From Chiloscyllium plagiosum (Eukaryota): a stretch of DNA of 52,826 bases. The stretch spans positions 3,481,851 through 3,534,676 of the forward strand of contig NC_057757.1 of the NCBI RefSeq assembly GCF_004010195.1, written 5' to 3'. This document shows positions 7,368 to 51,128 of this stretch, piece by piece. The notes below the pieces were generated by a model, which was not told where the DNA came from, ran no database searches, and was given only the letters and a program-made list of their open reading frames with translations. Position 1 is the first letter of the stretch. Every line of letters starts with the position of its first letter. The position numbers and the translations under genes are program-made.

Positions 7368-7520
7368 AGGTCAAAAATCACATAACGCCAGGCTATAGCC
7401 CAACAGGTTAATTTGAAATTGTGAGCTTTCGGAGCCTCACTCCTTCTTCAGGTGCTAATGAGAGAGGAGACATCCGACACAGAATCTATAAGTAAAAGAT
7501 CAAAGAGTCATACAAGTTAG
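7368..7520 (-). mobile_element. Penelope-like terminal-repeat fragment (family 2)
   Basis: Homologous to 9293-9470; contains a hammerhead-like motif. Confidence 0.6.
7423..7451 (-). ncRNA. Minimal hammerhead ribozyme motif (family 2)
   Basis: CTGAAGA-A-GGAG(tgagg)CTCC-GAA-AGCT-C: both catalytic boxes, a 4-bp helix II and a palindromic AGCT in place of helix III. Confidence 0.6.
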
Positions 7521-8134
7521 AGTGAGAGGCGAAAACTTTAAAAGGGACCTAAGGGGCAACATTTTCACACAGAGGATGGTGCGTGTATGGAATGAGCTGC
7601 CAGAGGAAGTGGTGGAGGCCAGTACAATTACAGCATTTAAAAGGCATCTGGATGGGTATATGAATAGGAAGGGCTTAGAGGGATATGGGCCAAGTGTTGT
7701 CGAATGGGACTAGATTAGGTTCGGATAACTGGCCAGCATCCACGCTGGACATCTCTAAGGCTCTGTGACTCATTGAGTGTGTGGGTCCCCCTGTCATGCA
7801 AGTAGAGTCCCAGCAGATTGACCTGTTTAAAAATAAGGAAACATCCATTTTTTCAATCATATTGAGTCTTTGAAATTCCCTTCTTCAAAAGGCGATGGAT
7901 GCAGAAACTTTAAATATTTATTTTTAAGGCAGAGACAGATAGATTCTTGTCGACTGAGAGGATGAAGGACTATTGGGGGTGGGGATGTGCAGAGAATGTA
8001 GGGTTGAATCCCAAATCAGATCAGCCAATGATCTTATTGAATGGCGGGGCAGGCTCGAAGGGCTGAATGGCCTAATGCTGTTCCTTGTTCATATGTTTGA
8101 ATGTACCTTGAAAGGAACAGCTAAAAAAGAATCA

Positions 8135-8698
8135 TAAGGATGTACAGCACTGAAACAGACCCTTTGGAGCAACTCGTCAATGTCGACCAGATATCCCAAC
8201 CTAATCTAGTCCCATTTGGCAGCATTTGGCTCATATCCCTCCAAACCCTTCCTATTCATATATGCATCCAGATGCCTTTTAAATACTGTAATTGTACCAG
8301 CCTCCACCACTTTCTCTGGCAGCTCATTCCATACATGCACCATCCTCTGTGTGAAAATGTTGCCCATCAGGTCCCTTTTAAATCTTCCCCCTCTCACCCT
8401 AAACTCTCTAGTTCTGGACAGCCCCCACCCCAGGGAAAAGACCTTATCTATTTACCCTGCCCATGCCCCTCATGATTTTGTAAACCTCTATAAGGTCACC
8501 CCTCAGCCTCCGATGCTCCAGGGAAAACAGCCCCAGCCTGTTCAGCCTCTCCCTATAACTCAAATCCTCCAATCCTGGCTACATCCTTGTAAATCTTCTT
8601 TGAACCCTTTTAAGTTTTACAATATCCTTCCAATTGGAGGGAGACCAGAACTGCACGCAATATTCCAAAAGTAGCCTAACCAACATCCTGCACAGCCG
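8135..8698 (-). mobile_element. CR1/HER1-like LINE 3' fragment
   Basis: RFKRDLMGNIFTQRMVHVWNELPE plus 3'UTR. Confidence 0.9.
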
Positions 8699-9331
8699 AG
8701 ATGTATTTTCAAGTCAGGATAACGCCTATTGTGGGGTGGTCTTCATAGGGTTGAGTGCCTCTCAACGTTCATTGCCCGTCCATGAACTGGGTGCCTTGCT
8801 GGGCCATCATTCAGTGGGCGGAAAGGAGATGGCTCCGTCACTGTGGGTCTCTCAGCCTGGCGTGGACTTCCACCGTGATTCCAGAGCCATTTCCCAACCT
8901 CCAGTCTGGGGTCAGTGCTCAGTGTAGGTGCTGGTGTGGGCTCGGTTGGAAGGATGGTTATTCTGAACTTTTCATTTCTCTATATTATAATTTATTCCCA
9001 CCATCTGCAATGCTTGACCTTTTTTCTGCCCCCTAAGAATTTGCATTGAAGAATCTGTACCTTGAGACCTTGTACCTGAGATGGCACCATGCAGTTTGTT
9101 TTTATTCACTGGATGTGCACATCGCTGGCTCGGCTAGCATTTATTGCCTGGAGGGCAGTTAAGAGTCAACCACATCGCTGTGGGTCTGGAGTCACATGTG
9201 GGCCAGAACAGCAGTTTCCTTCTCTAAAGGGCATTAGTGAACCAGATGGGGATTTTTTTTCCAACAATGGATTCATGGTTATCCTTAGACACAGTTAAAA
9301 ATCACACCACACCAGGTTATAGATTTGGAAG

Positions 9332-9366
9332 CACTAGCTTTCAGAGCGCTGCTCCTTCATCAAGTG
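9332..9366 (-). ncRNA. Minimal hammerhead ribozyme motif (family 2, C3 mutated)
   Basis: CAC-TTGATGA-A-GGAGC(agc)GCTCT-GAA-AGCT-A-GTG; helix I is CAC/GTG. Confidence 0.55.
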
Positions 9367-9476
9367 GTTGTGGAGTATAAGATCGTAATACACAGAATTT
9401 ATAGCAAAAGTTTACAGTGTGCTGTAACTGAAATTATATCTTGAAAAGACCTGTAAGTTGTAAGTTCTTTTAATGG

Positions 9477-9778
9477 GGGTGGCACAGTGTCTCAGTGGTT
9501 AGCACTGCTGCCTCACAGCACCAGGTACCTGGGTTCGATTCCTGCCTTGTGTGACTGTCTGTGTGAAGTTTGCACATTCTCCCTGTGTCTGCGTGGGCTT
9601 CCTCCGGGTGCTCCGGTTTCCCCCCACAATCCAAAGATGTGCAAGCCAGGTGAATTGGCTAAATTGGCCATAGTGATAGATGCATGAGTTAGGGGAATGG
9701 GTCTGGGTGGGTTATTCTTCGGAGGATCTGCGTTGGGCTGAAGGGCCTGTTTCCATATTGTAGGAAATCTAATCAAAT
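9477..9778 (+). mobile_element. HE1 V-SINE
   Basis: Full-length pattern, nested in the PLE insertion. Confidence 0.9.
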
Positions 9779-9995
9779 GAGCTTTAACAATTGGTGTCAT
9801 GTCAACCCAGATAATGCATTTAAGGTGTGAGCTGGTGTTTTGTGATTTTTAACTTTGTACATCCCTGTCTAACACCAGCATCTCCAGATCATCCTTCGAC
9901 ACTTGCTTCCAGATTTTACTGAGTCCATGCTTCACCATCTGTCGTGGTGTTTGAATCCAGGTCCCCAGAACATTAGCTGGGCCTTTGCATTAACA

Positions 9996-10124
9996 TTCCT
10001 GAAGAAGGGCTTGTGCCCGAAACGTCGATTCTCCTGTTCCTTGGATGCTGCCTGACCTGCTGTGCTTTTCCAGCAACACATTTTCAGCTCTGATCCCCAG
10101 CATCTGCAGCCCTCGCTTTCTCCT
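9996..10124 (+). mobile_element. 129-bp Penelope-derived insertion (family 1)
   Basis: 14-bp TSD CCTTTGCATTAACA (9982-95, 10125-38). The sequence matches the 3' end of the PLE at 21407-22226. Confidence 0.8.
9999..10026 (+). ncRNA. Minimal hammerhead ribozyme motif (family 1)
   Basis: CTGAAGA-A-GGGC(ttgt)GCCC-GAA-ACGT-C: intact core with a GUC cleavage triplet. Confidence 0.7.
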
Positions 10125-10239
10125 CCTTTGCATTAACAATCAAGTGACAATACCACAAGGCCATTGTCTCCCCAGTGGGGATGTGTGAACTTTTCACTGC
10201 ACTCAAGTGACAACGAAGCTAATTCAACTCTTTGGCCAG

Positions 10240-10664: not shown

Positions 10665-12352
10665 TATGTTAGGATGAGATGTGAAGGCTCAGTTAGGGCG
10701 CCTGAGGATTACAAGTAGCCAGGAAAGACCTAAAGAGAGAGCTCAGAAGAGCCAAGAGGAGACATGAGAAGTTGTTGGTGGATAGGATCAGGGTAAACCC
10801 TAAGGCTTTCTATAGGTATTTAAGGAATAAAAGAATGACGAGAGTAAGATTAGGGCCAATCAAAGATAGTAGTGGGAAGTTGTGTGTGGAGTCAGAGGCA
10901 ATAGGGGAAGCACTAAATGAATATTTTTCAACAGTATTCACTCTAGAAAACAACAATGTAGTCGAGGAGAATACTGAGATACAGACTACTGGACTAGGTG
11001 GGATTGAGGTTCACAAGGAAGAGGTATTAGAAATCCTGCAGAGTGTGAGAGTAGATAAGTCCCCTGGGCCAGATGGGGTTTATCCTTGGATCCTCTGGGA
11101 AGCCAGGGAGGAGATTGCCGATCCTTTGGAATTGATCTTTAAATCGCTAATGTCTACAGGAATAGTGCCAGAAGACTGGAGGATATCAAATGTGGTTCCC
11201 CTGTTCAAGAAGGGGAGTAGAGACAACCCTGGTAATTATAGACCAGTGAGCCTTACTTCAGTTGTTGGTAAAGTGTTGGAAAAGGTTAACAGAGATAGGA
11301 TTTATAATCATCTAGAAAAGAATAATTTGATTAAGGATAGTCAGCACGGTTTTGTGAAGGGTAGGTTGTGCCTCACAAACCTTATTGAGTTCTTTGAGAA
11401 GGTGACCAAACAGGCAGATGAGAGTAAACCAGTTGATGTGGTGTATATGGATTTCAGCAGGGAATTCAATAAGATTCCCCACAGTAAGCTATTGTACAAA
11501 ATGCGGAGGAATGGGATTGTGGGAGATATAGCAGTTTGGATCAGTAATNNNNNNNNNNNNNNNNNNNNNNNNNNNNNNNNNNNNNNNNNNNNNNNNNNNN
11601 NNNNNNNNNNNNNNNNNNNNNNNNNNNNNNNNNNNNNNNNNNNNNNNNNNNNNNNNNNNNNNNNNNNNNNNNNNNNNNNNNNNNNNNNNNNNNNNNNNNN
11701 NNNNNNNNNNNNNNNNNNNNNNNNNNNNNNNNNNNNNNNNNNNNNNNNNNNNNNNNNNNNNNNNNNNNNNNNNNNNNNNNNNNNNNNNNNNNNNNNNNNN
11801 NNNNNNNNNNNNNNNNNNNNNNNNNNNNNNNNNNNNNNNNNNNNNNNNNNNNNNNNNNNNNNNNNNNNNNNNNNNNNNNNNNNNNNNNNNNNNNNNNNNN
11901 NNNNNNNNNNNNNNNNNNNNNNNNNNNNNNNNNNNNNNNNNNNNNNNNNNNNNNNNNNNNNNNNNNNNNNNNNNNNNNNNNNNNNNNNNNNNNNNNNNNN
12001 NNNNNNNNNNNAAGATAATCAGAGGGTTAGACAGGGTGGACAGGGAGAGCCTTTTTCCCCGAGTATAGTGATGGCAAGCACAAGGGGGCATAGCTTTAAA
12101 TTGAGGGGTGATAGATATAGGGCAGATATCAGAGGTATTTTCTTTACTCAGAGAGTAGTAAGGGTATGGAATGCTTTGCCTGCAACGGTAGTAGATTTGC
12201 CAACTTTAAGTACATTTAAGTCATCATTGGACAAGCATATGGACATACATGGAATAGTGTAGGTTAGATGGGCTTCAGATTGACATGACAGGTCGGCGCA
12301 ACATCGAGGGCTGAAGGGCCTATACTGCGCTGGAATGTTCTATGTTCTATGT
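10665..12352 (+). mobile_element. CR1-type LINE ORF2 (reverse transcriptase) to 3' tail, spanning an assembly gap
   Basis: Open frame with KSPGPDG, VVPLFKKG, NYRPVSLTSVVGK, SQHGF, DVVYMDF. After the gap come the C-terminus and the (TGTTCTA)n tail. Confidence 0.95.
11549..12010. other. Assembly gap (462 N)
   Basis: Run of N. Confidence 1.
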
Positions 12353-15075: not shown

Positions 15076-15679
15076 CCTGAACCCCCAGCCTCAGTGTGGA
15101 CTTGACCTGAAACCCAGAGTCGAGAGTATTGTGCTGGAAAAACACAGCCAGCATCCGAGGGGCAGTAGAGTTGACATTTCAGGCATAAGCCTTTCTTCAA
15201 GGATTAGCCCATTTTATCAGATTCCCCACAGTGAGATTTGAACACATGCTCCTCGGTATTAGCTGGGGGTTTTGAGCTGCTAGTCCAATGTGTTACCACT
15301 ACACCATTCCCACTGCAGTATCCAGCATCTGCAGTCCTCACTTTCTCCTAGTCTGGTCTGGATTGGCAGGACTGTTATTCCAAACTCTCATTTCTCTATT
15401 TTTCTAATTTAATGCTGGAATTCTTATTACTTTACCTTTCTCATTCCTTTCTCGAAGAATTTGTAACTTAAGAGTCGTGTACCTTGGCATCTAAGAAGGC
15501 ACCTTAACTGGCGACTTGTCAACCTTTCACTGTACTCCAGTAACAGTAAAGTAAATTCTAATTCTAAAAATAAACATCCCCCCTGCTTCAGAGGACAAAC
15601 AATTCTGAACGGGTTGGTTAGAAAACTTGGTTAAATTAAAAAGAATAAAAGGCCCATGATTGGCTGTATCTGTTAATAA

Positions 15680-16165
15680 TCACAGAATCTCCTACAGTGT
15701 GGAAACAGGCCATTCAGCCCATGTCCACCCTCCACCCTCCAAAGAGTAACCCACACAGACCCATTTCCCTACATTTATCTCTGACTAATGCACCTAACCT
15801 TCACATTCCTGGACACTATGGGACAATTTAGCACAACCAATTCACCCTAACCTGCACATCCCTGGACACTATGGGACAACTTAGTACGGCCAATCCACCC
15901 TAACCTGCACATCCCTGGACACTATGGGACAAATTAGCACGGCCAATCCACCCTAACCTGCACATCCCTGGACACTATGAGACAATTTAGCACAGCCAAT
16001 CCACCCTAACCTGCACATCCTTTGGACTGTGGGAGGAAACCAGAGCAAACCCATGCAGACACGGGGAGAATGTGCAAACTCCACACAGACAGTCGCCCAA
16101 GGTTGGAATCAAACCCAAGTCCCTGGTGCTGTGAGGCAGCTGTGCTCACCACTGAGCCAAGGTGC
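15680..16165 (-). mobile_element. HE1 V-SINE with ~4 tandem copies of the internal 53-bp unit
   Basis: Repeated CCTAACCTGCACATCCCTGGACACTATGGGACAATTTAGCAC...CCAATCCAC. Confidence 0.9.
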
Positions 16166-21100: not shown

Positions 21101-21677
21101 TAAAAAATTTTATGATCGTTTTCACTTCCTTGACGTTCCTGAAGAAAGACAATATGCACTTTGTCCAGGCTGCACTAAGGCCGAGAGCAAACGCTTCCAG
21201 GCACTCAGCCAGCTAAGCAGGGAAGCTCAGGTTCTTTCCTAACACATCTGGCTGTTTGCTGTCTGTGATGACCTTCCCTACGTTGTCCAACTTCCACATT
21301 CCTAACCATCCCCAACTACCCCCAGATCCCCTGTTTAGCAGGAATCTATTTTAGTGGCACCTTAACAATACTTAAGGGTCCCGGGTAGACAGGGTAGTGA
21401 AGAAGGAATGCCTCATCTTCTGCCTCGGAACACTTCAACCCCATGGCATCAATGTGGATTTCACCAGTTTCCTCATTTCCCCTTCTCCCACCTCACCCCA
21501 GCTCCAAGCTTCCAGCTCAGCACTGCCCTCATGACCTGTCCTACCTGCCTATCTTCCTTTCCACCTATCCACTCCACCCTCCTCCTTGACCTATCACCTT
21601 TATCCCCACCCCCATTCACCTGTTGTACTCTTTTCTACCTTCCCCCACCGTTCTCTCTGGCCTATCACCTCCATCTC

Positions 21678-21999
21678 TGGGCGGCACGGTGGCACAGTGG
21701 TTAGCACTGCCGCCTCACAGCGCCAGAGGCCCGGGTTCAATTCCCGCCTCAGGCAACTGACTGTGTGGAGTTTGCACGTTCTCCCCGTGTCTGCGTGGGT
21801 TTCCTCCAGGTGCTCCGGTTTCCTCCCACAGTCCAAAGATGTGCAGGTCAGGTGAATTGGCCATGCTAAATTGCCGGTAGTGTTAGGTAAGGGGTAAATG
21901 TAGGGGTATGGGTGGGTTACGCTTCGGCGGATCGGTGTGGACTTGTTGGGCCGAAGGGCCTGTTTCCACACTGTAATGTAATCTAATCTAAATCTAAAT
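21678..21999 (+). mobile_element. HE1 V-SINE, young CpG-rich copy
   Basis: Intact A and B boxes, CpGs retained, (AATCT)n tail; nested in the PLE. Confidence 0.95.
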
Positions 22000-22097
22000 C
22001 CCCACCCCCATTCACTATTGTAATCTATGCTACTTTCTCCCCACATCCAGCCCCCTCTCATTTATCTCTCCACTCTGCAGGCACCCTGGGTCTATTC

Positions 22098-22125
22098 CTG
22101 ATGAAGGGCTTTTGCCCGAAACGTC
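22098..22125 (+). ncRNA. Minimal hammerhead ribozyme motif (family 1)
   Basis: CTGATGA-A-GGGC(tttt)GCCC-GAA-ACGT-C in the PLE terminal repeat. Confidence 0.7.
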
Positions 22126-23344
22126 AATTTTCCTGCTCCTCGGATGCTGCCTGAACTGCTGTGCTTTTCCAGCACCACTCTAATCTAGACTCTGGTTTCC
22201 AGCATCTGCAGTCCTTGTTTTTACCTACAGGGTAGTGAAGAAGGCATTTGGAACACTTGCCTTCATTAGTCAGTGTATTGAGTTAGGAGGTCATGTACAG
22301 GACATTGGTTAGGCCACTTTGGGAATACCATGTTCAGTTCCGGACTCCCTACTATATAAAAAGATGTTGTTAACCATGAACGGGTTCAGAAAAGATTTAC
22401 AAGGATGTTGGAGGATTTGAGCTATTGGGAGAGACTGAGTAGGCTGGGTCTGTTTTCCCTGGACCGTCAGAGTGTGAGGCGTGACCTTATAGAGGTTTAT
22501 AAAATCATGAGGGGCATAGACTGGGCGAATAGGCAAGGCCTTTTCCACAGGGTCGGTGAGAAGGGAGAGATTTAAAAGGGACCTAAGGGGCAATGGCTTC
22601 ACGCAGAAGGTGGTGCGTGTATGAAATGAGCTGCCAGAGGAAGTGATAGAGGCTGGTACAATTGCAACATTTAAAACGCATCTGGAATGGTTAGCATTTG
22701 GAAAGCTTTAGAGGGAAATACTGGCAAATGGGAGTAGATTAATTTAGGATATCTGGTCGGCACAGACGAGTTGAACCGAGGGGTCTGTTTCCCTGCTGTA
22801 CAAGTCTCTGACTCAATAATCTAGATAATCAGGTCTTTGGGTCCTGGGTATAAGTCTCATCATATGTCCACAGAGTCCAACCTTTGGAACTGAACTGATT
22901 TCATGGGTGGGGGTGGGTAGGCAGAGGCTGCTTCTGAGACAAAGTGATCTCTATTTCCTGAATGGGGTGTTGGGAAGGGGGGCATAGTGAAGGAGGCATT
23001 GAACAAGGAATTGTTCCCTGATACTGCTTCCTGTTTCATTTCCCCCACTCTAGCCCCCACTCTCTTCCTCATTGTTCAGGAGTTAGGTGGCTATCTCTGC
23101 AGTTTTAAGCGTTGAGAGGAAGTCGTCAGGAAGTTTTCTAAGACCGTTTGTCGGAAAATCCCGGAGTTAGTCAGCATTCTGAAATGAATCCATCGATGAA
23201 AACAATTGGCACATTGACAGCCGGTTGCTGTCAGTGACTCAACGGACAGTACTCTGAATCAGAAAGTCACAGGTTCAAATCCCTCTTGAGACACACTAAG
23301 ATGATCATGCACTTTGTCTCACAGCTCCATATCAGTCAGTGAAG

Positions 23345-24599: not shown

Positions 24600-25260
24600 T
24601 GAAACGCAGCAAGTCTGGAAGCATCAGTGGAGAGAAAGCAGAGTTAATTTTTTAGCCCAGCGACCCTGCTTCAGAAGGGTGAGTCAGTAGGAAAATACAC
24701 TGAAGAGAGGGGTTGGTCACATGGAAGGGGGAAGAATGAGGAGGGAAGAAGTGCAGATGGAGGTCAGAAACAGTGAGAAACAGTTAGACAGATAAACAGA
24801 TGGATGGTAAAATGCCAGAGGAAAAGAGAAGCCAATAATTAGGTGACCTTGGTTTGGCTGTGTTGACAGCAGGCCATGGAATGCCAATGCCTGGCATGTG
24901 GGCTTGGCTGCTAGGACATGGGAGAAGACACTCAGGTCTTGAAAGGATTGAACTCGACATTGAAGGGTCCCCGAGTGGAAAATGAGAAGGTGCTCTTCCA
25001 GCTTGCACTGAGTTTCGCTGGAGCACTACAGCAAACCTGAGATGGAGATGTGGACCAGGGACCAGATTGGGGCGTTAAAGAGCCAGGCAACTGGAAGCTC
25101 AGGATGTTTTTTTTGGCGGGCAGAAAGGAGGGGTTTCGCGACGTGGTCACCCGGTCTATGCTTCGTTTCCCCAGAGGAGATGACATTGTGAGCAGCACGT
25201 GGAGTTGACCGGATTGAGTGAAGCTCAGGAAAGGATTGTCTGGGATCCTTGGATAGTGAG
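24600..25260 (-). mobile_element. Older Penelope-like element fragment (family 3)
   Basis: Decayed ORF end (GLL*CSSETQCKLEEHLLIFHSGTLQ / NVEFNPF), pyrimidine-rich UTR, terminal repeat. Confidence 0.65.
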
Positions 25261-25627
25261 GAGGCAAATATTTATTGTAAACCTTCTATAATCGCATGGG
25301 AAGGTGCAGTGGGGGGATGTGGGAGGCATTAGGACTGCACCAGGATGTCTCTAAACAGGATCATAAGCCACCATTTTCATCAGCTCCAACGAGATGCCAC
25401 CATCAGACGCATATTGCCCTCCCCTCCTTCCGCAGGGAGCATTCCCTCCGGGACACCCTGGTCCTCTCCTCCTCCATTTCCAACGCCTCCCATTTTCCAA
25501 CTCATTCTCCGTCCACTCATTGGCATCATCCCTTTCTCCTTACCTCTCCATTATCCATCCCTTTGTCTGGCTATCTTTCCCTTTCTCTGGATTTCATCTC
25601 CATCGATCCTCTTCTTCCTCTCTTAGA

Positions 25628-25932: not shown

Positions 25933-27124
25933 TCCCTGACATCCTCTGTCTTCAGTCAACAGTGTGGTGCTGGAAAAGTACCGCAGGTCAGGAAGCATCC
26001 GAGGAGCAGGAGAATCGATGTGCCGGGCACAAGCCCTCCAGCAGACACGCCAATGTTTCTAGGCTACTATGAATTCCGAAGAAGGGTCACTGGACCCAAA
26101 CTGTTAACTCTATTTCTCTCCCTGGAAGATATTGCCAGGCTGGTGAGCTTCTCCAGCAATACCTGTTTTAGTTTCAAATTTCCAGTGTCCGAAAGATTCC
26201 ATTTTATTATAGAGGGATTCTTGATCAGTCGTGGAATCAAGGATTATGGGAAAAAGGCAGGAAAGTAGATGTGAGGATTGCCGGATCCACCATGACTCTA
26301 CTCCTGTTCCTATTCCTAATGCCTGTATGATCTGTATTTCCAGCAATTACCAGCTGTACACCAGTCTCGAGACGGAATTGTTTGGTGAAATCCATCAGAA
26401 CTGTACTCCAAACCAACACAGGGAGTGCTGGAGGAACTCAGCAGGTCTGGTAACATCCGTGAAGCGAGAAACAGAGTTAATATTTCGAGTCCAGAGCCAC
26501 TGACCCATAGCATTGAATTCCGCTCTGATAGAGACACACCCTTGAGTTATCTGAACTGAGGCTGCACGATCACAATTGCTTGACATTCTGACCTGTTCCA
26601 AACTGAATGATTTACAAGCCAGTATGTAACCAGGAGTTGGTGGGGACGGGGGGAACGTTCCCACAGAAAATAATGCGACAGACTTTGAGACCCCAGTGGT
26701 TATGGGATAAGATGGACCCACAGCTCGGGCGACTTTAGTGAGATCATGTCAAAACAGGTTTATGAAATCTTCAAGAAAATCTATAGCCATAAATTCAGGC
26801 AGTGACTGAAAGGGAAAATGATTTAGACCTTGGATCCCTTAAAGACTCAGTCTAGGCAGTTAGTCATGCATGCATAAAAGGTGTAACCATTGTAAATGGC
26901 ACACACTGAACTCTTACAAAACAATGGCTTTACATTTTTTTTCAGGATAATGATTTCCAATTAAAAAATGGTTACACGTTTGCAAACCCTTATCTCTATC
27001 CGACTGTTTATACAACTTACATTCCCAGTGCGTACCCATGATTCATGTGATTTAAATAAATCATTACAAGTTCCCATAAGAATGCAGTTTGTGATTACCA
27101 AACTTGCAAGCAAAATCAGTCGCT

Positions 27125-29900: not shown

Positions 29901-30101
29901 TGGCGGTATGGTGATTTAGTGGTTAGCACTACTGCCCCACAGCACCAGGCATCTGGATTTGATCCCAGCCTCAGGCGAGTTTGCACATTTTCCCCATGTC
30001 TGCATGGGTTTCCTCCAGGTGCTCCGGTTTCCTCCTACAATCCAGAGATGTGCAGGTTAGGGTGGATTGGCCATGCTAAATTGCCCCATAGTGTCCAGGG
30101 A

Positions 30102-30900
30102 TGGCATCCTTCTTTAGAGATCGCAATTTTCCTTCCCATGTAGTTGAAGATGCCCTCCAACGCATCTCGTCCACATCCCATCCCTCCGCCCTCAAACCCC
30201 ACCCCTCCAACCGTAACAAGGACTGAACCCCCCTGGTGCTCACCTTCCACCCTACCAACCTTCGCATAAACCACGTCATTTCCGCCACCTCCAAATGGAC
30301 CCCACCACCAGGAATATATTTCCCTCCCCACCCATTTCCGCTTTCCGCAAAGACTGTTCCCTCCATGACTACCTGGTCAGTTCCACGTCCCCCAACAACC
30401 TACCCTCCCATCCTGGCACCCTCCCCTGCCACTACCGGAATTGCAAAACCTGCGCTCACACCTCCTCCCTCACCTCCATCCAAGGCCCCAAAGGAGCCTT
30501 CCACATCCATCAAAGTTTTACCTGCACATCCACTAATNNNNNNNNNNNNNNNNNNNNNNNNNNNNNNNNNNNNNNNNNNNNNNNNNNNNNNNNNNNNNNN
30601 NNNNNNNNNNNNNNNNNNNNNNNNNNNNNNNNNNNNNNNNNNNNNNNNNNNNNNNNNNNNNNNNNNNNNNNNNNNNNNNNNNNNNNNNNNNNNNNNNNNN
30701 NNNNNNNNNNNNNNNNNNNNNNNNNNNNATTGTGCTCTTTGCTATCTTCTCCCCAGCCCCACCTCCCCCATTTATCTCTCCACCCTGGAGGCTTCCTGCC
30801 GTTAATCCTGATAAAGGGCTTTTGCCTGAAACGTCGATTTTCCTACACCTCGGATGCTGCCTGACCTGCTGTGCTTTTCCAGCACCACGCTGATCTAAAC
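30102..30900 (+). mobile_element. Penelope-like element fragment (family 1) spanning a gap
   Basis: DPTTRNIFPSPPISAFRKDCSLHDYLV...CRNCKTC-like ...HQSFTCTSTN (PLE linker / start of GIY-YIG). The terminal repeat has a mutated hammerhead motif at 30808-30835 with helix I AATC/GATT. Confidence 0.85.
30538..30728. other. Assembly gap (191 N)
   Basis: Run of N. Confidence 1.
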
Positions 30901-33718: not shown

Positions 33719-34864
33719 CTCAGTCATAGAGTCATACAGCATGGTCTGATGCTGACCATAATCCCAAACCAAATTAGTCCCATCTGCCTGCGCTTGGCCC
33801 ATATTCCTCCAAACCTTTAGTTTAGTTTGGGAATGTGGTCAGCATGGACCAGTTGGACTGAAGGGTCTAATTCCATGACTCTGTAACCAGGTGGGAGGGG
33901 TCTTTGATGATGTTGGCTGCCTTCCTGAGGCAGTGGGGAACTGTATGCAGAGTCAGTGGATGGGAGGCTGGCAATGGACTGGTCTCTGTTATTTCTCATG
34001 GTCTTGGGCAGAGCAGTTGCCATCCAGATAGGATGGTGCATCTATCAAAATTGTCAGCATCACGAGCGATGCAGTTTTGCCCAACTCCATTCCCACCCTC
34101 CACCTCCATCCCCTGAGCCCACTTCATCCTTTCTTTCTAACGTTGGGCAGCCCAAGAGATTTACTGTTGACTCTGTCTGCCTTCTTCCCCACCCCGCCCC
34201 CCCACGCCCGATTATGCAGAGTCATGTACACACTCCTAATCTGCTGGGTCATTTTCTCCAAGTGATGTTGTTGCCAAGCTGAGGCGAAAAAAAACAGGAT
34301 CTGGCATCCTTCCCAAAAACCTGGCATCAAACCTTGAGCTCCCACATCATTTATTTTAACCTTAACCTTCCGATCTATGCAAAGGCAAGATCCAGTAACT
34401 CTTCCAGTCAACATCCAGGCAATGATTAATTGTGGGTCCTTTTTGTTGTTATTTTTCAGCTCATTTTCTGTCAGGATGTTAGATAAGGTTCCAGCCTTAT
34501 CACAGCAGTCACAAAAAAGTTATTTTTATAAGGCAGTGACTGACAATGAGGCTTATCCTGGCTATGTTTATAGAAGTCAACACATTGGTGTTGGGGATTT
34601 TTGTTTTGTTTATGAGGAGACGGGCTCTCTCCCAAAGCTGAGGGGAAACTGTGCATGATACTCCCGAGTTTCCATCCTTAGCTATCTCTGTCTGAAGCAC
34701 TTCACTCCCCCAGCGTGACGTAGGGAGCTTCGCACACGTCAAGACACCGCTGAGGACAACAAAGGGGGTCTGCCGTTCTGAAAGAGATTAACGTTGGACT
34801 CGAAATGTTAACTTGACTCCTCTCTTCCGCAGTTGCTGAGTTTCTGAAGCGCTCTTGGATTTCC

Positions 34865-36298: not shown

Positions 36299-36907
36299 TT
36301 GCAATCATCGCCTCTGTAAGCTGTCACACTATCAGGTCTCGGGTTGGCCCTGATCCCACGGGATGGTGGGATAGGAGCGAGGGTGGCCTGCTCCCGATCC
36401 TATGCAGCAACTTAGTTCACACCCACCATATAGGGAAGTGAGCCTGGCTCCCTTACCCTGTCCGGGCCTCCACGTGACTCCAGGCCCTACAAGTGATTCC
36501 AGGCCTATGGCCAACAAGTGTGGGCCCAGTCAGCCAAGCCCACGCGTCAAGAACAAGTGCAGATACATTTTGGATTCCCAGCTCCGGGAGAATGTACACC
36601 TCTTACAGCACATTCACGGCGCTGGAGGAGGGTGTGTGTCCAACTTCCACATTCGAGAGCTGTTGCCAGTTCTCCCGGCGTTCCAATTGACTGCTCCATC
36701 CGCAGAGGAATCACACCAATTTCGAAAATGTAACCCTGTGTCTCCACAGATGCAGCCAAACCTGCTGAGTTTCTCCAGCAGTCCATGTCTGGTCCACCTT
36801 AATTGTCTAATTCGTTGCTGGAAAAGGGGTCTGGAGAAAACAGGATAGGATCTTAGCAAAAGCTGCATCTGTTACATAGGCCCAGAGTGATATATTGATC
36901 GAAGCAT

Positions 36908-38500: not shown

Positions 38501-38514
38501 ACACTGGGTTTTGA

Positions 38515-40200: not shown

Positions 40201-40509
40201 CCTCATCTCGATTGCACCCTCCGGCAACTCGCTGTCATTGCAGAGGTAAAGTGGTCACTTCCTCGAAATGAGGGCGCCTGCTCACTTATCAACACACACA
40301 ACTTCCTTCTGACCCGCAGATATGTGATGACTGTCCCTCCCTCCATCCTGCTTTTAAGGAAGGACATCGTTATCTCAACTTGCTGTTGGCACAATTACAA
40401 CACCCCGACTTGCGTGATTTGAGTGATGACTGCATATTTTCCTCTCTGTCTCATTTGTCCCTTGTTCTGCTCTGGACCTCCAGACTCAGGGAAATCATGT
40501 TGATTTCAT

Positions 40510-41770
40510 CGAATAAGTTGATTCAGGATAGTCAACATGGTTTTGTGAAGGGTAGGTTGTGCCTCACAAACCTTATTGAGTCCTTTGAGATGGTGACCAA
40601 AGAGGTGGATGAAGGTAAAGTAGTTGATGTGGTGTATATGGATTTCAGTAAGGCATCTGATCAGGTTCCCCACGGTAGGCTATTGCACAAAATATGGAGT
40701 CATGGGACTGAGGGTGATTTAGTGATTTGAATCAGACTTTGGTTAGTTGGAGGAAGATAGAGGATGGTGGTTGATGGGAAATGTTCACCCTGGAGTACTA
40801 GTGGTGTACTGCAAGGATCTGTTTTGGGTGCACTGCTGTTTGTCATTTTCAGAAATGACCTGGATGAGGGTGTAGAAGGATGAGTTAGTAAATTTGCGGA
40901 CAACACTGAAGTCGGTAAGTTGTGGATAGTGATTAAAGATGTTGTCGGTTACAGAGGGACATAGGTAAGCTGCAGAGCTGGGCTGAGAGGTGGCAAATGG
41001 AGTTTAATGCAGAAAAGTGTGAGGTGATTCAGTTTGGAAGGAGTAACAGGAATGCAGAGTACTGGGCTAATGGCAAGATCCTTGGTAGTGTAGATGAGCA
41101 GAGAGATCTTGGTGTCCGTGTACATAGATCCTTCAAAGTTGCCACCCAGGTTGTTTGGGCTGTTAAGAAGGCATACGATGTGTTAGCTTTTATTAGTAGA
41201 GGGATCGGGTTTTGGAGCCACGAGGTCATGCTGAAGCTGTACAAGACTCTGGTGCGGCCGCACTTGGAGTATTGCGTGCAGTTCTGGTCACCGCATTATA
41301 GGAAGGATGTGGAGGCTTTGGAAAGAGTTCAGAGGAGATTTACTAGGATGTTGCCTGGCCTGGAGGGGAGGTCTTACAATGAAAATTTGAGGGAGGGGTT
41401 GAGGCTGTTTTCGTTAGAGAGAAGAAGGTTGAGAGGCGACTAAATTGAGACTTATAAGATAATCAGAGAGTTAGATAGAGTGGACAGTGAGAGCCTTTTT
41501 TCTTGGAAGAGGGGGCATAGCTTCAAACTGCGGATTATAGATATAGGACAGATGTCAGAGGTAGTTTCTTTACTCAGTGAGTAGTAGGGATGTGGAATGT
41601 CCTGCCTGCCAACTCGCCAACTCTACGGGCATTTAAATGGTCATTGGATGGGCATTTGGACGAGAATGAAATAGTGTAGGTAAGATGGGCTTCAGATTGG
41701 TTTCACAGGGCAGTGCAACATCGAGGGCTGAAGGGCCTGTAGTGTGCTGTAATGTTCTATGTTCTATGTC
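40510..41770 (+). mobile_element. CR1-type LINE (RT core to 3' tail), decayed
   Basis: [43 protein letters not shown], (TGTTCTA)n tail. Confidence 0.95.
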
Positions 41771-43230: not shown

Positions 43231-43795
43231 GTGGACAAGGATGTTGCCAGGGTTGGAGGGTTTCAGCTACAGGGAGAGGCTGAATAGGCTGGGGCTGTTT
43301 TCCCTGGAGAATCGGAGGCTGAGGGGTGACCTGATAGAGGTTTATCGTGAGGGGCATGGATAGGGTAAATAGACAAAGTCGAAGAGTCTGGTGCTAGAAA
43401 AGCGCAGCCAGTCAGTCAGCATCCGAGGTGCAGCAGAATCAACGTTTCGAGCATACACTCTTCATCAGGACACTCCTTTCCCTGAGGTGGGGAAGTTGAA
43501 AAGTAGACGGCATAGGCTTAGACTGAGAGGGGAAAGAATTACAAGTGACCCGAGAGGGATATTTTCTACGCTAAGGGTGGTGCCTGTAAGGAATGAGCTA
43601 CTAGAGGAGATGGTAGAGGCTGGTACAATCACAACAGTTAAAAGGCATCTGGATGGCTCCATGAATAAGAAAGGTTTAGAGGGAAATGGGTCAAATACTG
43701 GCAAATGGAACAAGATGAACTTAGGATATCTGATCAGCACGGATGAGTTGGACCGAAGGGTCTGTTTCCGTGCAGTATGACTCTATGACTCTATT
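43230..43795 (+). mobile_element. CR1/HER1-like LINE 3' fragment with a short PLE insert (~43381-43472)
   Basis: [21 protein letters not shown]...SRRHRLRLRG plus UTR. Confidence 0.85.
43441..43468 (-). ncRNA. Minimal hammerhead ribozyme motif (family 1 variant)
   Basis: CTGATGA-A-GAGT(gtat)GCTC-GAA-ACGT-T. Helix II has a compensatory G-C to A-U change relative to the other copies. Confidence 0.6.
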
Positions 43796-45904: not shown

Positions 45905-46407
45905 AGAATTGCTTCAGTGAGGAAACAGGCCATTCAGACAGTTGAGTCCACACCCTCCACCTGAAGATCATCCCGCCCAGACCCCATCCTATCCCTGTAA
46001 CTCTTACATTTCCCCATGGCCAATCCACCCTAACCTGCACATTCCTGGACATTATAGGGCAATTTCCCATGGCCAATCCACCCTAACCTACACATCCATG
46101 GACATTATGGGACAATTTCCCATGTCCAATCTACCTTAACCTGCATATCCTTGGACACTATGGGACAATTTAGCATGGCCAATCCACCCTAGCCTGCACA
46201 TTCCTGGACACTGTGGGACAATTTAGCATGGCCAATCCACCCTAACCTACACATCCCTGGACTGTGGGAGGAAACTGGAGCAACCGGAGGAAACCAATGT
46301 AGACACAGGAAGAATGTGCAAACTCCACACAATTGCCCAAGAATGGAATTGAACCCAGGTTCCTGGTGCTCTGAGGCAGCAGTGCTAACCACTGAGCCAC
46401 CATGCCA
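45905..46407 (-). mobile_element. HE1 V-SINE with ~5 internal 53-bp units
   Basis: Tandem units at 46010-46260 between head and tail. Confidence 0.9.
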
Positions 46408-46724: not shown

Positions 46725-47255
46725 TGAATTGAATTGAATTGAATTGAGTTTATTGTCACGTGTACCGAGGCACAATGAAAGGCTTTGTCTTGCGAGCAAT
46801 ACAGGCAGATCACAGAGTTAAGCAACATAGATAGGTAAATGATAGATAAACAGCGGCAAAATCAAAAACACAGGTACAGGTGAATGTTAAGAGTTTGTGA
46901 GTCCATTCAGTATTCTAACAACAGTAGGGTAGAAACTGTTTCGAAACTGGCTGGTGCGTGGTTCAGGCTTCTGTACCTTCTCCCCGATGGTAGAGGTTGT
47001 AGAAAACCATTGCCAGGCTGGGGTGAATCTTTGAGAATGCTGGCGGCCTTTCCTTGACAGCGGGCCTGGTAGATGGATTTTATAGATGGGAGGTTGTGAT
47101 TGTCCCGGGCCGAGTTCACCACTCTCTGTAACCGTCTCCGATCTTGAATGGTACAGTTAACATGCCAGTTAGTGATACACCCAGACAGAATGCTCTGGAT
47201 AGCGCACCTATAAAAGTTGGCAAGGGTATTCGCCGCCATGCCAAATTTTCTTAGG
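46725..47255 (-). mobile_element. Rex1/Babar-like LINE 3' fragment
   Basis: LRKFGM...LANFYRCAIQSILSGCIT.W...DRRRLQRVV...PLPSGRRYRS; (TTCAA)n tail. Confidence 0.85.
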
Positions 47256-47259
47256 GTTT

Positions 47260-47789
47260 TCATTAAAAGTTGGAACAATAGAAGCAACCTGGCTGGGTGG
47301 GGTTAAGCTCACCCAGAACCAGGATTTTTAGTTTTAGTTTCTTAGTAGCAGTTGCTGGGGTCTTGAAGCTGGGGGTCTGAAAGCTGCAGCACCTCACTCC
47401 CTGCTAATCTCTCAGAGTTTTGTCTTGGCGGTTTTTTTCCCCTCCTGGATTGGAGAATTGCCTGTGAGACAATCTGTTTTACTGAATTTGCCTTTGCCAT
47501 GGGTGTGTTGTGGGATGTTACTGGATCGAACAGCTACTATTTAGCAATTAAACAATCGATTATTCTGTTAAGCTTTCTCAATTGGGTTACATTATTCCAA
47601 TTTCTTTCACCTTTGTTTGCATTTTAACGGCAGTGTTTGAATGAAGTGTTTTGCCTGAAGCCTGGTACTTTGACCAATTGAATTGCACCCAGAATGCAAT
47701 GCTCTACACTTGCCTTTGAAATAAGAAAAAGTTCGGTTCTATACTATCTTCTGAATATATTTTGAGGGGGCTTGGTCTGATCCAGAACA
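47260..47789 (+). mobile_element. Probable partial solo LTR
   Basis: T-rich LTR-like composition with no ORF, ending ...TTGGTCTGATCCAGAACA. The 5' TG end and a TSD were not found. Confidence 0.35.
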
Positions 47790-48079: not shown

Positions 48080-48492
48080 TTTACTCTGTATCCAACTCCT
48101 TTCATGGGAGTATTTGTTGGGTTTAGTGTAGAGGCATCTTTCCTCTGCATCTAACCCCATGCTGTCCCTGTCCTAGGAAGTGTTCGATGAGGGACAGTGT
48201 AGAGCATGCATTACTTTGTATCTAACCCCGTGCTCTCCCCGTCCTGGGGAGTGCTTGATAGGGGACAGTGTAGAAGGAGCTTTACTCTGTATCTCACCCC
48301 GTGCTGTCCCTGTCCTGCGAGTGTTTGATGGGGGACAGTGTAGAAGGAGCTTTACTCTGTATCTCATCCTGTACTGTCCCTGTCCTGGAGAGTGTTTGAT
48401 GGGGGATAGTGCAGAGGGAGCTTTACTCTGTATGTAATCCTGTGTTGTCCCTGTCCTGGGAGTGTTTGATGGGGGACAGTGTAGTGGGAGCT
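48080..48492. repeat. ~70-bp minisatellite block 1 (~6 copies)
   Basis: Unit CTGTATCTAACCCCGTGCTGTCCCTGTCCTGGGAGTGTTTGATGGGGACAGTGTAGAGGGAGCTTTACT. Confidence 0.95.
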
Positions 48493-48772
48493 TGTTGGGA
48501 AAAAGTAAATCTTGTGCAGCATCGTTTAAAACAAGTATCGAGGAGATGGGACCTTGAGCAATTAATTAGCTTTATCATGGCCGTGGTGAATACATCTTTG
48601 TTCAAGGACATCTGACACATTCCAATGAAATACACAAGTTATATCGTATAACACAAGCCCACTGGCCCTTAACTACGCAACCTCGGGGCAGTCGTAAGGT
48701 CCACGTACTTTGCCCGGACCTACATTTTTTAATATTTACAAAACTGAATGTTATCTGATACTGCACATTCAG

Positions 48773-48875
48773 CTCGGCTCAACAACCGATAAAGGACATA
48801 GAGACACAATACATCATCTATGAAGCAGAATGGTCTGAGGGGCCAGAGGTGCAGAGGGAACCATACCACTGCAAG
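48773..48875 (+). CDS. Candidate internal exon (SAQQPIKDIETQYIIYEAEWSEGPEVQREPYHCK)
   Basis: Unique spacer between satellite blocks. Acceptor ctgatactgcacattcAG, donor AAG|GTCAGG; only one frame is open (phase 2 to 0). Confidence 0.3.
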
Positions 48876-48954
48876 GTCAGGCTAGCAAAACAGACTTCCT
48901 CAGCCAGGCCTCACACAGCACTTTGCTAGCAAGCTACATCTTACTGCAAACATT

Positions 48955-49770
48955 GCTAACCCCTTACTGTCCCTGCACTGGGAGTGATTCACGGGGGACA
49001 GTGTAGAGGAGGCTTTGCTCTGTATCTAACCCAGTGCTTTCCCTGTCCTGGGAGTATTTGATGAGGACAGTGTAGAGGAAGCTTTACTCTGTATCTCACC
49101 CCATGCTGTGCCTGTCCTGGGAGTGTTTGATGGGTGAAATTGTCAAGGGAGCTTTACTCTGTATCTAACCCGGCTGTCCCTGCCCTGGGAGTGATTGATA
49201 GGGGACAGTGTAGAGAGAGCTTTACTCTGTATCTAACCCCGTGCTGTCCCTGTCCTGGGGAGTGTTTTATGGGGGACAATGTAGAGGGAGCTTTGCTCTG
49301 CATTTAACCCTGTTCTGTCCCTGTCCTGGGGAGTGTTTGATAGAGGACAGTGCAGAGGAAGCTTTATTCTGTCTCTAACCCCGTGATGTCCCTGTCCTGG
49401 TAGTGTTTTATGGGGTCAGTGTAGAGGAAGCTTTATTCTGTCTCTAACCCCGTGCTGTCCCTGTCCTGGTGAGAATTTGATGGGGGGACAGTGTAGAGGA
49501 AGCTTTACCCTGTATCTAACTCCTGCTGTCCCTGTCCTGGGAGTGTTTGATGGGGGACAGTGTAGAGAGAGCTTTACTCTGTCTCTAACCCTGTGCTATC
49601 CCTGTCCTGGGAATGTTTGATGGGGGGACAGTGCAGAGGGAGCTTTACCATGCATCTAACCCCGTGCTGTCCCTGTCCTGGGAGTGTTTGATGGGGGACA
49701 GTGTAGAGGGAGCTTTACTCTGTATCTAACCCCGTGCTGTCCCTGCCCTGAGAGTGATTGAGACGGGACA
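48955..49770. repeat. ~70-bp minisatellite block 2 (~11.5 copies)
   Basis: Same unit as 48080-48492. Confidence 0.95.
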
Positions 49771-50923
49771 CTGGTTAAAGTTGTGGTGTTACTCGAACAT
49801 TTTCTAGAACGATCTGCATGGGAACATGGAGGAAAACCAAATAAGACACAACAAAATGAGGTCAGCAGGAAGGCAAGTGAAAGCCCACAGACAAAATGTG
49901 TTCTGCGGCAAGACTCAACAGATCGTGGTTTTGTTTATGTACATTTGCTTCCAGCTCACTGTAGGCAAAGAAATCCCTGACCTGTGCTGTCTGATGGCTG
50001 CTGCTACTGCGTCTTGTCTGAATGTGTCATCTGGCTGTATCAGCATGTGATCCTGTGTCTGTGTATTCCTCCTGGTGATAGTTACAGCCCATAAATAAAA
50101 ATCTAGCAGCCAACCTTAAGGTCCCTGTGGGTTTAACTCCTCCCTGTTGGTTCCTGCGTGTAGATCTAATCTGCACGGTACACATTCCAATACCTCTTCA
50201 TCTTGGACACAGGAATCTCACCCTGTTCATTTCACCCATCCCACACCCTGTTCCTGATGTGCTGTGGAATCTAAAGCCTTGTCCCAAGTTTTATCAATGC
50301 GCCATTCTATCTGGGTGCATTTTGGCAAGGCAACTGGATTACTCCCGGTGCTGCGAGCTACCGAGGGTAGGAATAAGAGGATAGAGCAGACGAATGCACA
50401 GCTGAGGAGCTGGTGTTTAGGAGGAGGATTCACATTTTTGGATCATTGGATTCTCTTCTGGGGTAGAAGTGACCTGTATAAGAAGGACGGATTGCACCTG
50501 AATTGCAGGGGGAGTAATATACTGGTAGGGAGATTTGCAAGAGCTGCTTTGGAGGATTTAAACTATTAAGTTGGGGGGAAGGGACCCAATGGGATAGGAA
50601 AGAGATCAATCTGAGACTGGTACAGTTGATAAAAGAAGCAATTCAAACTGTCAGGGCAGGCAGGGACAAAGCAGAGAACAAGGTAGGACTGATAAATTGA
50701 TCTGCATTTATTTCAATGCAAGAGGTCTAACAGGGAAGGCAGATGAACTCAGGGCATGGTTATAACATGGGACTGGGATATCATGGCAATTACAGAAACA
50801 TGGCTCAGAGATGGACAGAAATGGCAGCTTAATGTTCCAGGACACAAATGCTACAGGAAGGATAGAAAGGAAGGCAAGAGTGGAGGGGGAGAGGTGTTTT
50901 TGATAAATGATAGCATTACAGCT

Positions 50924-51128
50924 ATTGAGAGTATGTTGCCGGAAAAGCACAGCAGGTCAGGCAGCATCCGAGGAGCAGGAAAATCGACTTTCAGGCCTCA
51001 TTCCTGATGAAGGGCTCCTGCCCGAAACGTCGTTTTTCCTACTCCTTAGATGATGCCTGACCTGCTGTGCTTTTCCAGCAACACACTCTCAACTCTGATC
51101 TCCAACATCTGCAGACCTCACTGTCTCC
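50924..51128 (+). mobile_element. 205-bp fold-back Penelope-derived insertion
   Basis: 13-bp TSD TAGCATTACAGCT (50911-23, 51129-41). Inverted arms at ~50925-50996 and ~51020-51092. Confidence 0.85.
51004..51031 (+). ncRNA. Minimal hammerhead ribozyme motif (family 1)
   Basis: CTGATGA-A-GGGC(tcct)GCCC-GAA-ACGT-C. Confidence 0.7.

Follow-up and report, generated by a model that had tools for sequence, protein, structure and literature searches.

Minimal hammerhead ribozymes (min-HHRs) have been described in the pseudo-LTRs of metazoan Penelope-like elements (PLEs), fishes included, and their palindrome has already been reported as well (Cervera and de la Pena 2014, PMC4209133). The motifs described there share with those presented here the CUGANGA-H box, a G-C pair opening helix II, the GAAA box, a palindromic 15.2-16.2 and a short helix I, and they also share a genomic setting: several families per genome, mostly solo copies of truncated elements with some opposite-strand pairs, and ACGU and AGCU families within one genome, as in S. 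mansoni (PMC4209133). Other PLE hammerheads do not cleave as monomers and cleave weakly as dimers (PMC4209133). In the Poseidon element PAc of Anolis carolinensis, cleavage by the hammerhead requires the element's protein, and insertion in vitro does not depend on the hammerhead (PMC11167929). Related to PLEs are also the non-LTR retrozymes, which have been proposed to be non-autonomous PLE derivatives and were found in the one chondrichthyan sampled (PMC7229834; bioRxiv 10.64898/2026.07.22.740005). The role of PLE hammerheads is still debated (PMC8557442, PMC11167929). Our literature search, which covered sources other than subscription journals, found no papers devoted to shark PLE hammerhead families, and cartilaginous fish are absent from Table S1 and the Fig. 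S3 alignment of the 2014 study (PMC4209133).

We analyzed a whole stretch of 52,826 nt of Chiloscyllium plagiosum DNA (hereafter, the window). A descriptor scan (CTGANGA, one base, a helix II of at least 4 bp, GAAA) revealed a full hammerhead core with such a helix II at five sites, i.e., with C3 at 9999, 22098, and 51004 on the plus strand and at 43468 and 7451 on the minus strand. The expectation by chance is 0.05 sites (mean of 200 dinucleotide shuffles; maximum 1) and drops to 0.015 if the palindrome is demanded, a significance that is overstated because same-family copies are not independent. Eight sites had been named in a first-pass annotation, and the motif pattern is present at all of them; the positions given for its minus-strand sites mark the low end of each motif, C3 actually lying at 43468, 7451, and 9363. 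The accompanying claim of constant catalytic boxes does not stand, as the boxes are intact in just 5 of these 8 sites and damaged at 30808, 9363, and 26076. Two further copies, at 15200 and 26044 on the minus strand, had been overlooked. Collectively, our census includes ~18 end-pieces of three families (A, B, and C), and the core boxes CUGANGA/GAAA, U16.1, and H17 are intact in 5 of the 14 sites with recognizable boxes, the other 9 being damaged. This local density (~18 remnants, 5 of them core-intact, in 52 kb) looks far above the 4,000-9,000 motifs per genome of coelacanth and Xenopus, and it makes a high genomic copy number plausible.

A covariance model trained on six family A copies yielded two matches at E <0.05 beyond its training set, both already known; it uncovered no further family and missed family B. 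Outside the window, a pattern scan of viral contigs gave 120 loci, 13 of them with at least 3 helix II pairs, and none fit the family A or B profile, so these were considered unrelated; a tail scan of metagenome contigs gave 14 loci, none with an upstream hammerhead, which were set aside as chance matches.

The hammerhead likeness itself might be a product of chance inside a repeat family. The non-independence of the copies inflates the shuffle test, an Rfam scan of the window (E up to 10) returned 8 weak matches with none to hammerhead families, and the covariation score was attained by 29 shuffles out of 500, on a MAFFT alignment whose B and C rows were out of register and give unreliable pair counts. 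However, the flanks of A and B are unrelated, and their helix II, palindrome, and helix I differ, yet the core layout is equal. Moreover, the motif occupies the documented PLE hammerhead position and matches the published consensus, by which the chance reading is largely refuted; we consider it extremely improbable.

Within family A, the solo insertion at 9996..10124 (+; C3 9999) carries helix II GGGC/GCCC, the ACGT palindrome, a GUC triplet, and a tail with the long-form extension; it begins 3-4 nt ahead of C3 and is flanked by a 14-bp target-site duplication (9982-9995 / 10125-10138). The long copy at 21407..22226 (+) comprises a PLE ORF C-terminus (to 21519), a 3' UTR, a hammerhead (C3 22098) with an intact core and a broken first helix I pair, and a long tail, between 18-bp duplications (21389-21406 / 22227-22244). 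A SINE-like repeat is nested in its 3' UTR. The other long copy, at 30101..30898 (+), contains an RT end, a Cys linker, a GIY-YIG start, a 3' UTR, a hammerhead (C3 30808) with G8>A in the core and a perfect 4-bp helix I, and a short tail; its ORF part (30101-30537) carries one stop and one frameshift and is followed by an N gap (30538-30728). An inverted partial copy starting within helix II (50925..50998, -) and the copy at 50999..51128 (+; C3 51004), which combines an intact core with a weak helix I and a long tail, lie head to head and form a hairpin insertion, and the unit is flanked by a 13-bp duplication (50911-50923 / 51129-51141). It sits within a LINE endonuclease region. The copy at 43378..43470 (-; C3 43468; core intact, short tail), with helix II GAGT/GCTC (one double change), a GUU triplet, and 3 contiguous helix I pairs, had been read as a separate lineage and is instead a family A variant, with 75-80% identity over 82-88 nt to 9999, 22098, 30808, and 51004; it is found in a LINE-like repeat. 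Two degenerate copies are located at 15110..15205 (-; C3 ~15200; box A damaged, palindrome ATGT) and 25954..26044 (-; both boxes damaged, helix II intact, ACAT), the latter facing the 26076 copy of family C head to head. In addition, a far-tail fragment at 15313..15347 (+), opposite in orientation to the 15200 copy, gave a weak profile match (E 0.47) and 93% blastn identity over 28 nt to the 9999 tail.

Family B is represented by two copies with the AGCT palindrome and by a tail fragment without a hammerhead at 9814..9859 (+; E 0.0026). The copy at 7370..7498 (-; C3 7451) has an intact core, helix II GGAG(T)/(G)CTCC, and a CUC triplet but has lost the 3' strand of helix I; in that at 9294..9410 (-), a U occupies the C3 position (9363), the triplet is CUA, and helix I (CAC/GTG) is intact. 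Paired with the 3' strand from 9363, the 5' strand from 7451 gives a helix I of 5 bp. Family C includes a degenerate copy at 26070..26185 (+; C3 26076; helix II GGGTC/GACCC, 5 bp; U4>C; GAAA box garbled) and a degenerate hammerhead with tail at 24602..24675 (-; C3 24674), located ~285 nt downstream of a broken same-strand PLE ORF remnant (24960..25329, -) that spans the linker and the GIY-YIG endonuclease region. An inverted piece of this ORF, encoding the directly preceding residues, is found at 25339..25472 (+) and represents a 5' inversion. The other family C remnants are at 26406..26505 (-; helix II onwards, E 5e-8 with the 26076 query), 3959..4051 (-; GAA-ACGT-T readable, beyond the span covered by the first-pass annotation), 34778..34851 (+; highly degenerate, a weak match with E 0.04), and 36701..36790 (+; tail). 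The palindrome is ACGT in the sole family C remnant with an intact site (4051).

RT/GIY-YIG remnants are found upstream of the motif in family A (30101-30537 and 21407-21519) and in family C (24960-25329), and the order of ORF remnant, 3' UTR, hammerhead, and tail is kept on a single strand at 22098, 30808, and 24674. The family A remnant is 82% identical to a Chiloscyllium punctatum RT + GIY-YIG protein; most of the 119 further relatives listed are likewise RT/GIY-YIG proteins, and C-x(2,6)-C-xx-C occurs in 117 of the 120. More specifically, the ORF part of 30101..30898 matches P0001 at 82-83% (E 1.7e-60), that of 21407..22226 matches P0002 at 67% (tblastn, E 5e-11), and the remnant at 24960..25329 matches P0075 and P0002 at 49% (E 1e-11 to 5e-11) and is matched by 41 of the 120 proteins, while Pfam gave no match for these short PLE remnants. 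The Cys linker CHYRNCKTC in the family A remnant (30274-30537) fits the CX2-5CxxC of Neptune/Nematis and is degenerate in the family C remnant. The remnants thereby resemble endonuclease-bearing (EN+) PLEs of Neptune/Nematis type (Craig et al. 2021, PMC8557442), of which the window contains no full-length copy; at none of the three insertions whose duplications are clear was microsatellite targeting apparent. The helix II of an Acropora Neptune motif, GGGC/GCUC, resembles that of family A; compared with the published min-HHRs, helix II is short here, at 4-5 bp (PMC4209133). Inverted partners and an optional 30-40-bp tail, as described for PLEs, are both present, with inverted units at 50925-51128, 15110-15347, and 24960-25472.

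The initial assignment of the motifs to minimal type I hammerheads of PLEs is thus upheld by the remnants adjoining A and C and by the published consensus. The link to EN+ PLEs is shown for families A and C and is likely for family B, where it comes from motif anatomy alone because no ORF remnant lies in the window, a point that weighs against extending the explanation to it. The suggestion of independent lineages is sustained for family B, for which no DNA similarity to A or C was detected, but not between A and C, which have a downstream tail in common (A-profile matches on C remnants, E 3.5e-7 to 6.5e-5).

The boundaries of the copies are informative with respect to their origin. Target-site duplications of 13-18 bp flank three copies. 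Five of the seven family A copies start 0-11 nt ahead of C3, and no start at the cut site was seen among nine family A remnants. On the 3' side, four family A copies end near +88-95 and three near +124-128, two classes 35-40 nt apart. PAc likewise has its hammerhead immediately ahead of the tail from which reverse transcription is initiated, ends at either of two 3' positions, and inserts from uncut RNA (PMC11167929). It differs in lacking the Cys linker, as a member of the Penelope/Poseidon clade. Its ORF starts inside the hammerhead, and its activity has been measured (PMC11167929). The starts close to C3 and the clean solo insertion at 9999 with its 14-bp duplication could also fit a separate, non-autonomous SINE- or retrozyme-like mini-element of ~90-130 nt, transcribed on its own from the hammerhead onwards and dependent on the PLE enzyme for copying, and non-LTR retrozymes are proposed PLE derivatives seen in the one chondrichthyan sampled. 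Retrozymes, too, consist of short non-coding repeats that are related to PLE pseudo-LTRs and contain type I hammerheads. They are, however, tandem arrays with a hammerhead per unit, whereas the window has no such arrays: its copies are solo or inverted, some are joined to PLE ORF remnants, and the closest copies sharing both family and strand are separated by 1.8-20.6 kb (in family A by 8.7 kb or more). Furthermore, the short copies share 83-88% identity with the ends of ORF-bearing copies, so that a separate master is unnecessary, and run-off copying from the 5' pseudo-LTR of a full-element RNA gives the same boundary. We therefore regard a distinct mini-element as unlikely.

With respect to folding, G10.1-C11.1 in helix II and an unpaired base after A9, both part of the published consensus, are found in all five core-intact copies. 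The predicted pairing probability of helix II is 0.96-1.0 in 5 of 6 family A copies and 0.38 in 43468; in the two family B copies it is 0.02-0.11, an alternative fold being preferred. The proposed covariation of helix II is suggestive within family A, where 28 of 28 cells pair and all six stem II changes keep pairing, two of them double changes, although these are too few and the variation otherwise lies mostly among the three families; pair 10.4-11.4 takes four forms across copies. A palindrome at 15.1-16.1 replaces a stable helix III in 7 of 8 parsed copies. It had been said to be always present, which is true of the seven main named sites (ACGT in five, AGCT in two) and not of 26076, 15200 (ATGT), or 26044 (ACAT). 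Helix I reaches 4 bp in 30808 and 3 bp in both 9363 and 43468, and the remaining five parsed copies show 0-2 contiguous pairs (2, 0, 1, 3, and 0 in the five core-intact ones, 22098 included), a pattern consistent with decay of an ancestral helix that is mostly broken today. In the commonest family A helix I, ATTC faces GATT with a U-U mismatch, and even the parent element may thus be a poor ribozyme.

Decay proceeds at similar rates in cores and tails. Changes relative to the family A majority number 6/77 in the core, 6/56 in stem II, and 16/140 in the tail (Fisher p 0.49 and 1.0), in a test of seven copies with little power. This bears on whether some copies have been co-opted by the host and cleave host transcripts, as do the conserved intronic hammerheads of amniotes. 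Five copies are core-intact, and 43468 also has three contiguous helix I pairs, but the core is conserved no better than the tail, no same-strand partner was found nearby, 24 Pfam queries gave no convincing host domain and no host gene was identified, and several copies lie within other repeats. Co-option is therefore very improbable.

A forced active dimer is predicted to be less stable than two summed monomer folds in 28 of 28 pairs, energies that are pessimistic because the folding model has no term for the hammerhead tertiary core. Lunse, Weinberg and Breaker (RNA Biol) reportedly describe dimer cleavage. The predicted energies of the forced double hammerhead are -1.2 to -11.5 kcal/mol for A-A (15 pairs), -2.9 to -12.5 for B-B (3 pairs), and +0.7 to +8.3 for A-B (10 pairs), the mixed helix III retaining 2 of 4 pairs. 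Such values favor a strong form of the idea raised in the first-pass annotation, in which ACGU and AGCU act as a selected code limiting dimers, and hence cleavage, to same-family RNAs. Nevertheless, helix I is likewise intermolecular and differs between families, which would produce incompatibility even without the palindrome; the family C remnant at 4051 reads ACGT, like A; and only four A-N-N'-U palindromes are possible, with ACGU the commonest across phyla in the 2014 alignment. A full element would also be expected to find its partner in cis, on the other pseudo-LTR, leaving little need for discrimination in trans. Mixed A/B dimers are predicted to be unstable, but the palindrome is no family barcode, given the contribution of helix I and the ACGU that is apparently common to A and C; a selected code seems quite doubtful to us.

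Taken together, the copies are very probably dispersed 5'-truncated end-pieces of endonuclease-bearing PLEs with the minimal type I hammerhead of the pseudo-LTR, an origin shown for A and C and likely for B; the genomic copies are likely inert and decaying. In an active parent, two motifs would pair via the 4-nt palindrome and helix I, probably aided by the protein of the element. The copies would be reverse-transcribed from RNA uncut at its own hammerhead, since the core is retained and family A remnants do not begin at the cut site. Selection on the fold would act in master elements only, with copies drifting once inserted. Pure neutral decay poorly predicts that 6 of 6 family A stem II changes keep pairing; these may reflect active subfamilies. 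As a more tentative extension, which is possible though on balance we would not favor it, the element RNA would start ~4 nt ahead of the core and the 90-130-nt copies would be strong-stop-like run-off cDNAs of the leader, with the 5' hammerhead pairing through helix I and the palindrome with that of the 3' pseudo-LTR in a family-specific clasp of the transcript ends.

As a class, these motifs add little, because PLE minimal hammerheads, palindromes included, were described in 2014; the record is extended to shark families. A genome so rich in copies is suited to a proper covariation test and to asking why insertions end at the front edge of the ribozyme and not at the cut site. If transcript ends are indeed clasped, the role of the PLE hammerhead would be end-joining or template jumping rather than simple cleavage.

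Both strands of the window were scanned with a descriptor of the minimal type I hammerhead (the box CTGANGA followed by a single base, a helix II with 4 or more pairs, and then GAAA), which yielded 5 matches: 9999, 22098, and 51004 on the plus strand, and 43468 and 7451 on the minus strand (sites are numbered by core base C3). Dinucleotide-preserving shuffles (n = 200) averaged 0.05 matches and never had more than 1; since copies of the same family are non-independent, the result should be counted as two to three families rather than five events. Allowing one mismatch in box A (CUGANGA) added 30808 on the plus strand (G8>A) and two sites on the minus strand, 9363 (C3>U) and 15200, the latter being a copy absent from the list of the first-pass annotation. 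All eight sites that the annotation had named from sequence alone contain a hammerhead-like motif; the motifs are real and were correctly recognized. A 3-pair match at 10100 on the minus strand was dropped because it corresponds to the tail of 9999 read on the opposite strand. A search of Rfam with E values up to 10 returned 8 matches, all of them weak and none a hammerhead.

The motif is found in three repeat families, A, B, and C, at the ends of Penelope-like elements (PLEs; for family B, this origin is likely). Profile searches of the window with a family A profile (E up to 1) gave 15 matches, comprising 9 family A and 6 family C pieces, and a family B profile gave 8, of which 3 were kept and 5 were discarded because flanking repeat sequence had been included in the profile. 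Overall, ~18 end-pieces occur in 52 kb, with recognizable boxes in 14 and an intact core in 5. Family A is characterized by helix II GGGC/GCCC and the palindrome ACGT in place of helix III, and the copy at 43468, at 75-80% identity, is a variant of this family. In family B, the corresponding sequences are GGAG/CTCC and AGCT; family C has GGGTC/GACCC, with ACGT in 4051, the sole remnant in which that site is intact. The downstream tail common to families A and C indicates that the two are related, whereas no DNA similarity of family B to either was found. A family A covariance model run on the window found no additional family and missed family B. One copy of family A and one of family C lie head to head at 25954-26185 with ~30 nt between them; no duplication was found around this pair, which could represent one insertion joining the RNAs of two families or one PLE end targeted by another.

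The 30808 motif is preceded by a reading frame (30274-30537) with 82% identity to P0001, a Chiloscyllium punctatum reverse transcriptase (RT) and GIY-YIG protein whose RVT_1 and GIY-YIG matches are weak, both falling under the Pfam cut-offs. The best 120 of its 808 relatives are mostly RT/GIY-YIG proteins, several of them from sharks and rays; these protein matches point to a shark-like genome. When these 120 were used as tblastn queries against the window, same-strand ORF remnants were revealed upstream of three motifs, i.e., at 30101-30537 (plus strand) before 30808, matched by 118 of the 120 proteins; a plus-strand ORF C-terminus before 22098, matched by 25; and at 24960-25329 (minus strand) before the family C motif 24674, matched by 41. 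An inverted piece at 25339-25472 (plus strand, tblastn) adjoins the last of these, and its residues immediately precede the minus-strand ones, so that 24960-25472 is the remnant of a PLE ORF whose 5' part is inverted. No ORF remnant was found for family B in the window. Assembly gaps occupy 11549-12011 and 30538-30728, the latter masking the endonuclease region in the best PLE copy. The family A remnant contains a CX4CxxC linker, a type that the available text of PMC8557442 assigns to two clades, Neptune and Nematis, but not to Penelope/Poseidon.

Ten units were examined for target-site duplications, and exact ones were present at three: 14 bp at 9999, 18 bp at 22098, and 13 bp at 51004 together with its inverted partner. 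Similar repeat units lie on both sides of 30808, and no duplication was found at the remaining six. The 3' ends of family A fall into two classes ~35-40 nt apart, matching the optional tail of PLEs (described in parts of PMC8557442 and PMC11167929). At the other end, 5 of the 7 hammerhead-bearing family A copies cease to resemble the two long copies 0-11 nt before C3 (starts at 9996, 50999, 43470, 15205, and 26044), and none of the 9 family A remnants starts at the cut site. The probability of at least 5 of 7 is ≤0.006 under geometric truncation with a mean extra length of 50-400 nt, for a boundary interval chosen post hoc. Only 9999 and 51004 have sharp upstream boundaries among the family A copies. 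At -4, the copies 22098, 30808, and 51004 match the initiator-like consensus YYANWYY, which is highly degenerate. The cluster of starts could plausibly reflect run-off at the 5' end of an RNA that begins immediately upstream of the core, given that reverse transcription of PAc, the Poseidon element of Anolis carolinensis, initiates in the tail, on the 3' side of the hammerhead (PMC11167929, in part) and that the promoter in D. virilis lies within the pseudo-LTR (PMC2377424, in part). Alternatively, a 3' splice site just before the core could produce the same cluster, as the intron end coincides with the start of helix I in D. virilis (PMC4209133, in part). The family A starts may mark either an RNA 5' end or a splice site.

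Every feature of the window motifs is already present in the 2014 description by Cervera and de la Pena (PMC4209133), the available parts of which report a minimal core, an unpaired base after A9, G10.1-C11.1, and the palindrome, as well as several covarying families per genome, solo shortened copies, and opposite-strand pairs. That work covers fishes, coelacanth, Xenopus, and reptiles, and neither its Table S1 nor its Fig. S3 was found to include a cartilaginous fish. The accessible text of a 2026 preprint (10.64898/2026.07.22.740005) describes tandem retrozymes from a single chondrichthyan, whereas the window copies are not tandem; further comparison is offered by parts of PMC6765202 and of PMC7229834, the latter on animal non-LTR retrozymes. 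Judged by title or the start of the abstract, none of the papers listed by literature searches on shark or Chiloscyllium Penelope elements or ribozymes was devoted to such hammerheads.

Several PLE ends sit inside LINE fragments, which extend over 10706-11545, 40272-41443, and 51235-52522 along with many shorter pieces, have RVT_1 and Exo_endo_phos_2 matches, and are presumably of CR1/L2 type by their motifs. Further retroelement remnants lie on the minus strand at 39682-40080 and 46907-47302; one has a weak zf-RVT match, and an ORF piece among them, with no Pfam match, resembles the C-terminus of a Rex1-type LINE. Arrays of a 53-bp unit (27231-28325, 15676-16126, 29388-29906, and 45965-46309) have apparently grown from a segment of an abundant SINE-like repeat, and a tRNA-like sequence at 5132-5192 on the minus strand (24.6 bits, under the Rfam cut-off) is probably a SINE head. 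Other tandem arrays, at 17329-17966, 20046-20815, 48112-49761, and 52497-52826, have units of 29, 70, ~71, and 12 bp, respectively. The long inverted repeat at 33750-33845 (arms of ~27 bp), with a weak microRNA-model match under threshold, is possibly a small DNA-transposon relic.

On known hammerhead chemistry, cleavage would come after H17, with GUC as the expected cleavage-site triplet in family A and CUA or CUC in family B. In the absence of loop III, two motifs would be needed for pairing: their palindromes would anneal into a helix III of 4 bp, and the 5' helix I strand of each motif would join the 3' strand of the other. Contiguous helix I pairs in the core-intact copies number 2 (9999), 0 (22098), 1 (51004), 3 (43468), and 0 (7451), and the best helices I belong to 30808 and 9363, both with damaged cores, so that 1 of 14 sites combines an intact core with three contiguous helix I pairs. 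A perfect 5-bp helix I results when the 5' strand AGCAC of 7451 is matched with the 3' strand GTGCT of 9363; it is identical to that of the Marsupenaeus japonicus motif (Fig. S3 of PMC4209133). These two minus-strand sites are 1.9 kb apart and give the best-scoring forced dimer, although 9363 has C3>U.

Departures from the family A majority amount to 6/77 in the core, 6/56 in stem II, and 16/140 in the tail (Fisher p = 0.49 and 1.0), a comparison of low power that gives no sign of selection on inserted copies. Against this reading, all 6 stem II changes preserve pairing, two of them being double changes (43468 and 15200); 3 of the 6 are C>T, two at CpG, and all 3 leave a G-U pair. The proposed covariation may or may not go beyond family history: 29 of 500 shuffles attained the covariation score, and in the underlying alignment the family B and C rows were mis-registered.

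Forced double-hammerhead folds ranged from -1.2 to -11.5 kcal/mol for 15 A-A pairs, from -2.9 to -12.5 kcal/mol for 3 B-B pairs, and from +0.7 to +8.3 kcal/mol for 10 A-B pairs. The first-pass annotation had suggested that ACGU and AGCU palindromes restrict dimerization to RNAs of the same family. Mixed A/B dimers are indeed predicted to be unstable and not to form, but the incompatibility arises from helix I too, ACGU seems to be common to families A and C, and in Fig. S3 of PMC4209133 ACGU is the commonest palindrome across phyla and coexists with AGCU families in Schistosoma mansoni. We regard the strong form of this idea as very improbable. None of the papers listed by a literature search concerned heterodimer tests; the work of Lunse et al. 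on dimer cleavage may bear on this point.

The summed monomer folds were more stable than the forced dimer in 28 of 28 pairs, under a model without tertiary terms. Helix II was predicted in 5 of 6 family A monomers, where the palindrome region tends to be taken up by pairing with box A; family B monomers prefer another predicted fold. These predictions agree with published behavior, as far as the available text of each source goes: monomers of PLE minimal hammerheads are uncleaved and dimers weakly cleaved (PMC4209133), and in PAc a protein assists cleavage, which is dispensable for insertion (PMC11167929). Same-family, same-strand copies are spaced 1.8-20.6 kb apart, leaving relics without a nearby partner. 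Most likely, the motif is selected in active parent elements and is predicted to be inert in the window copies.
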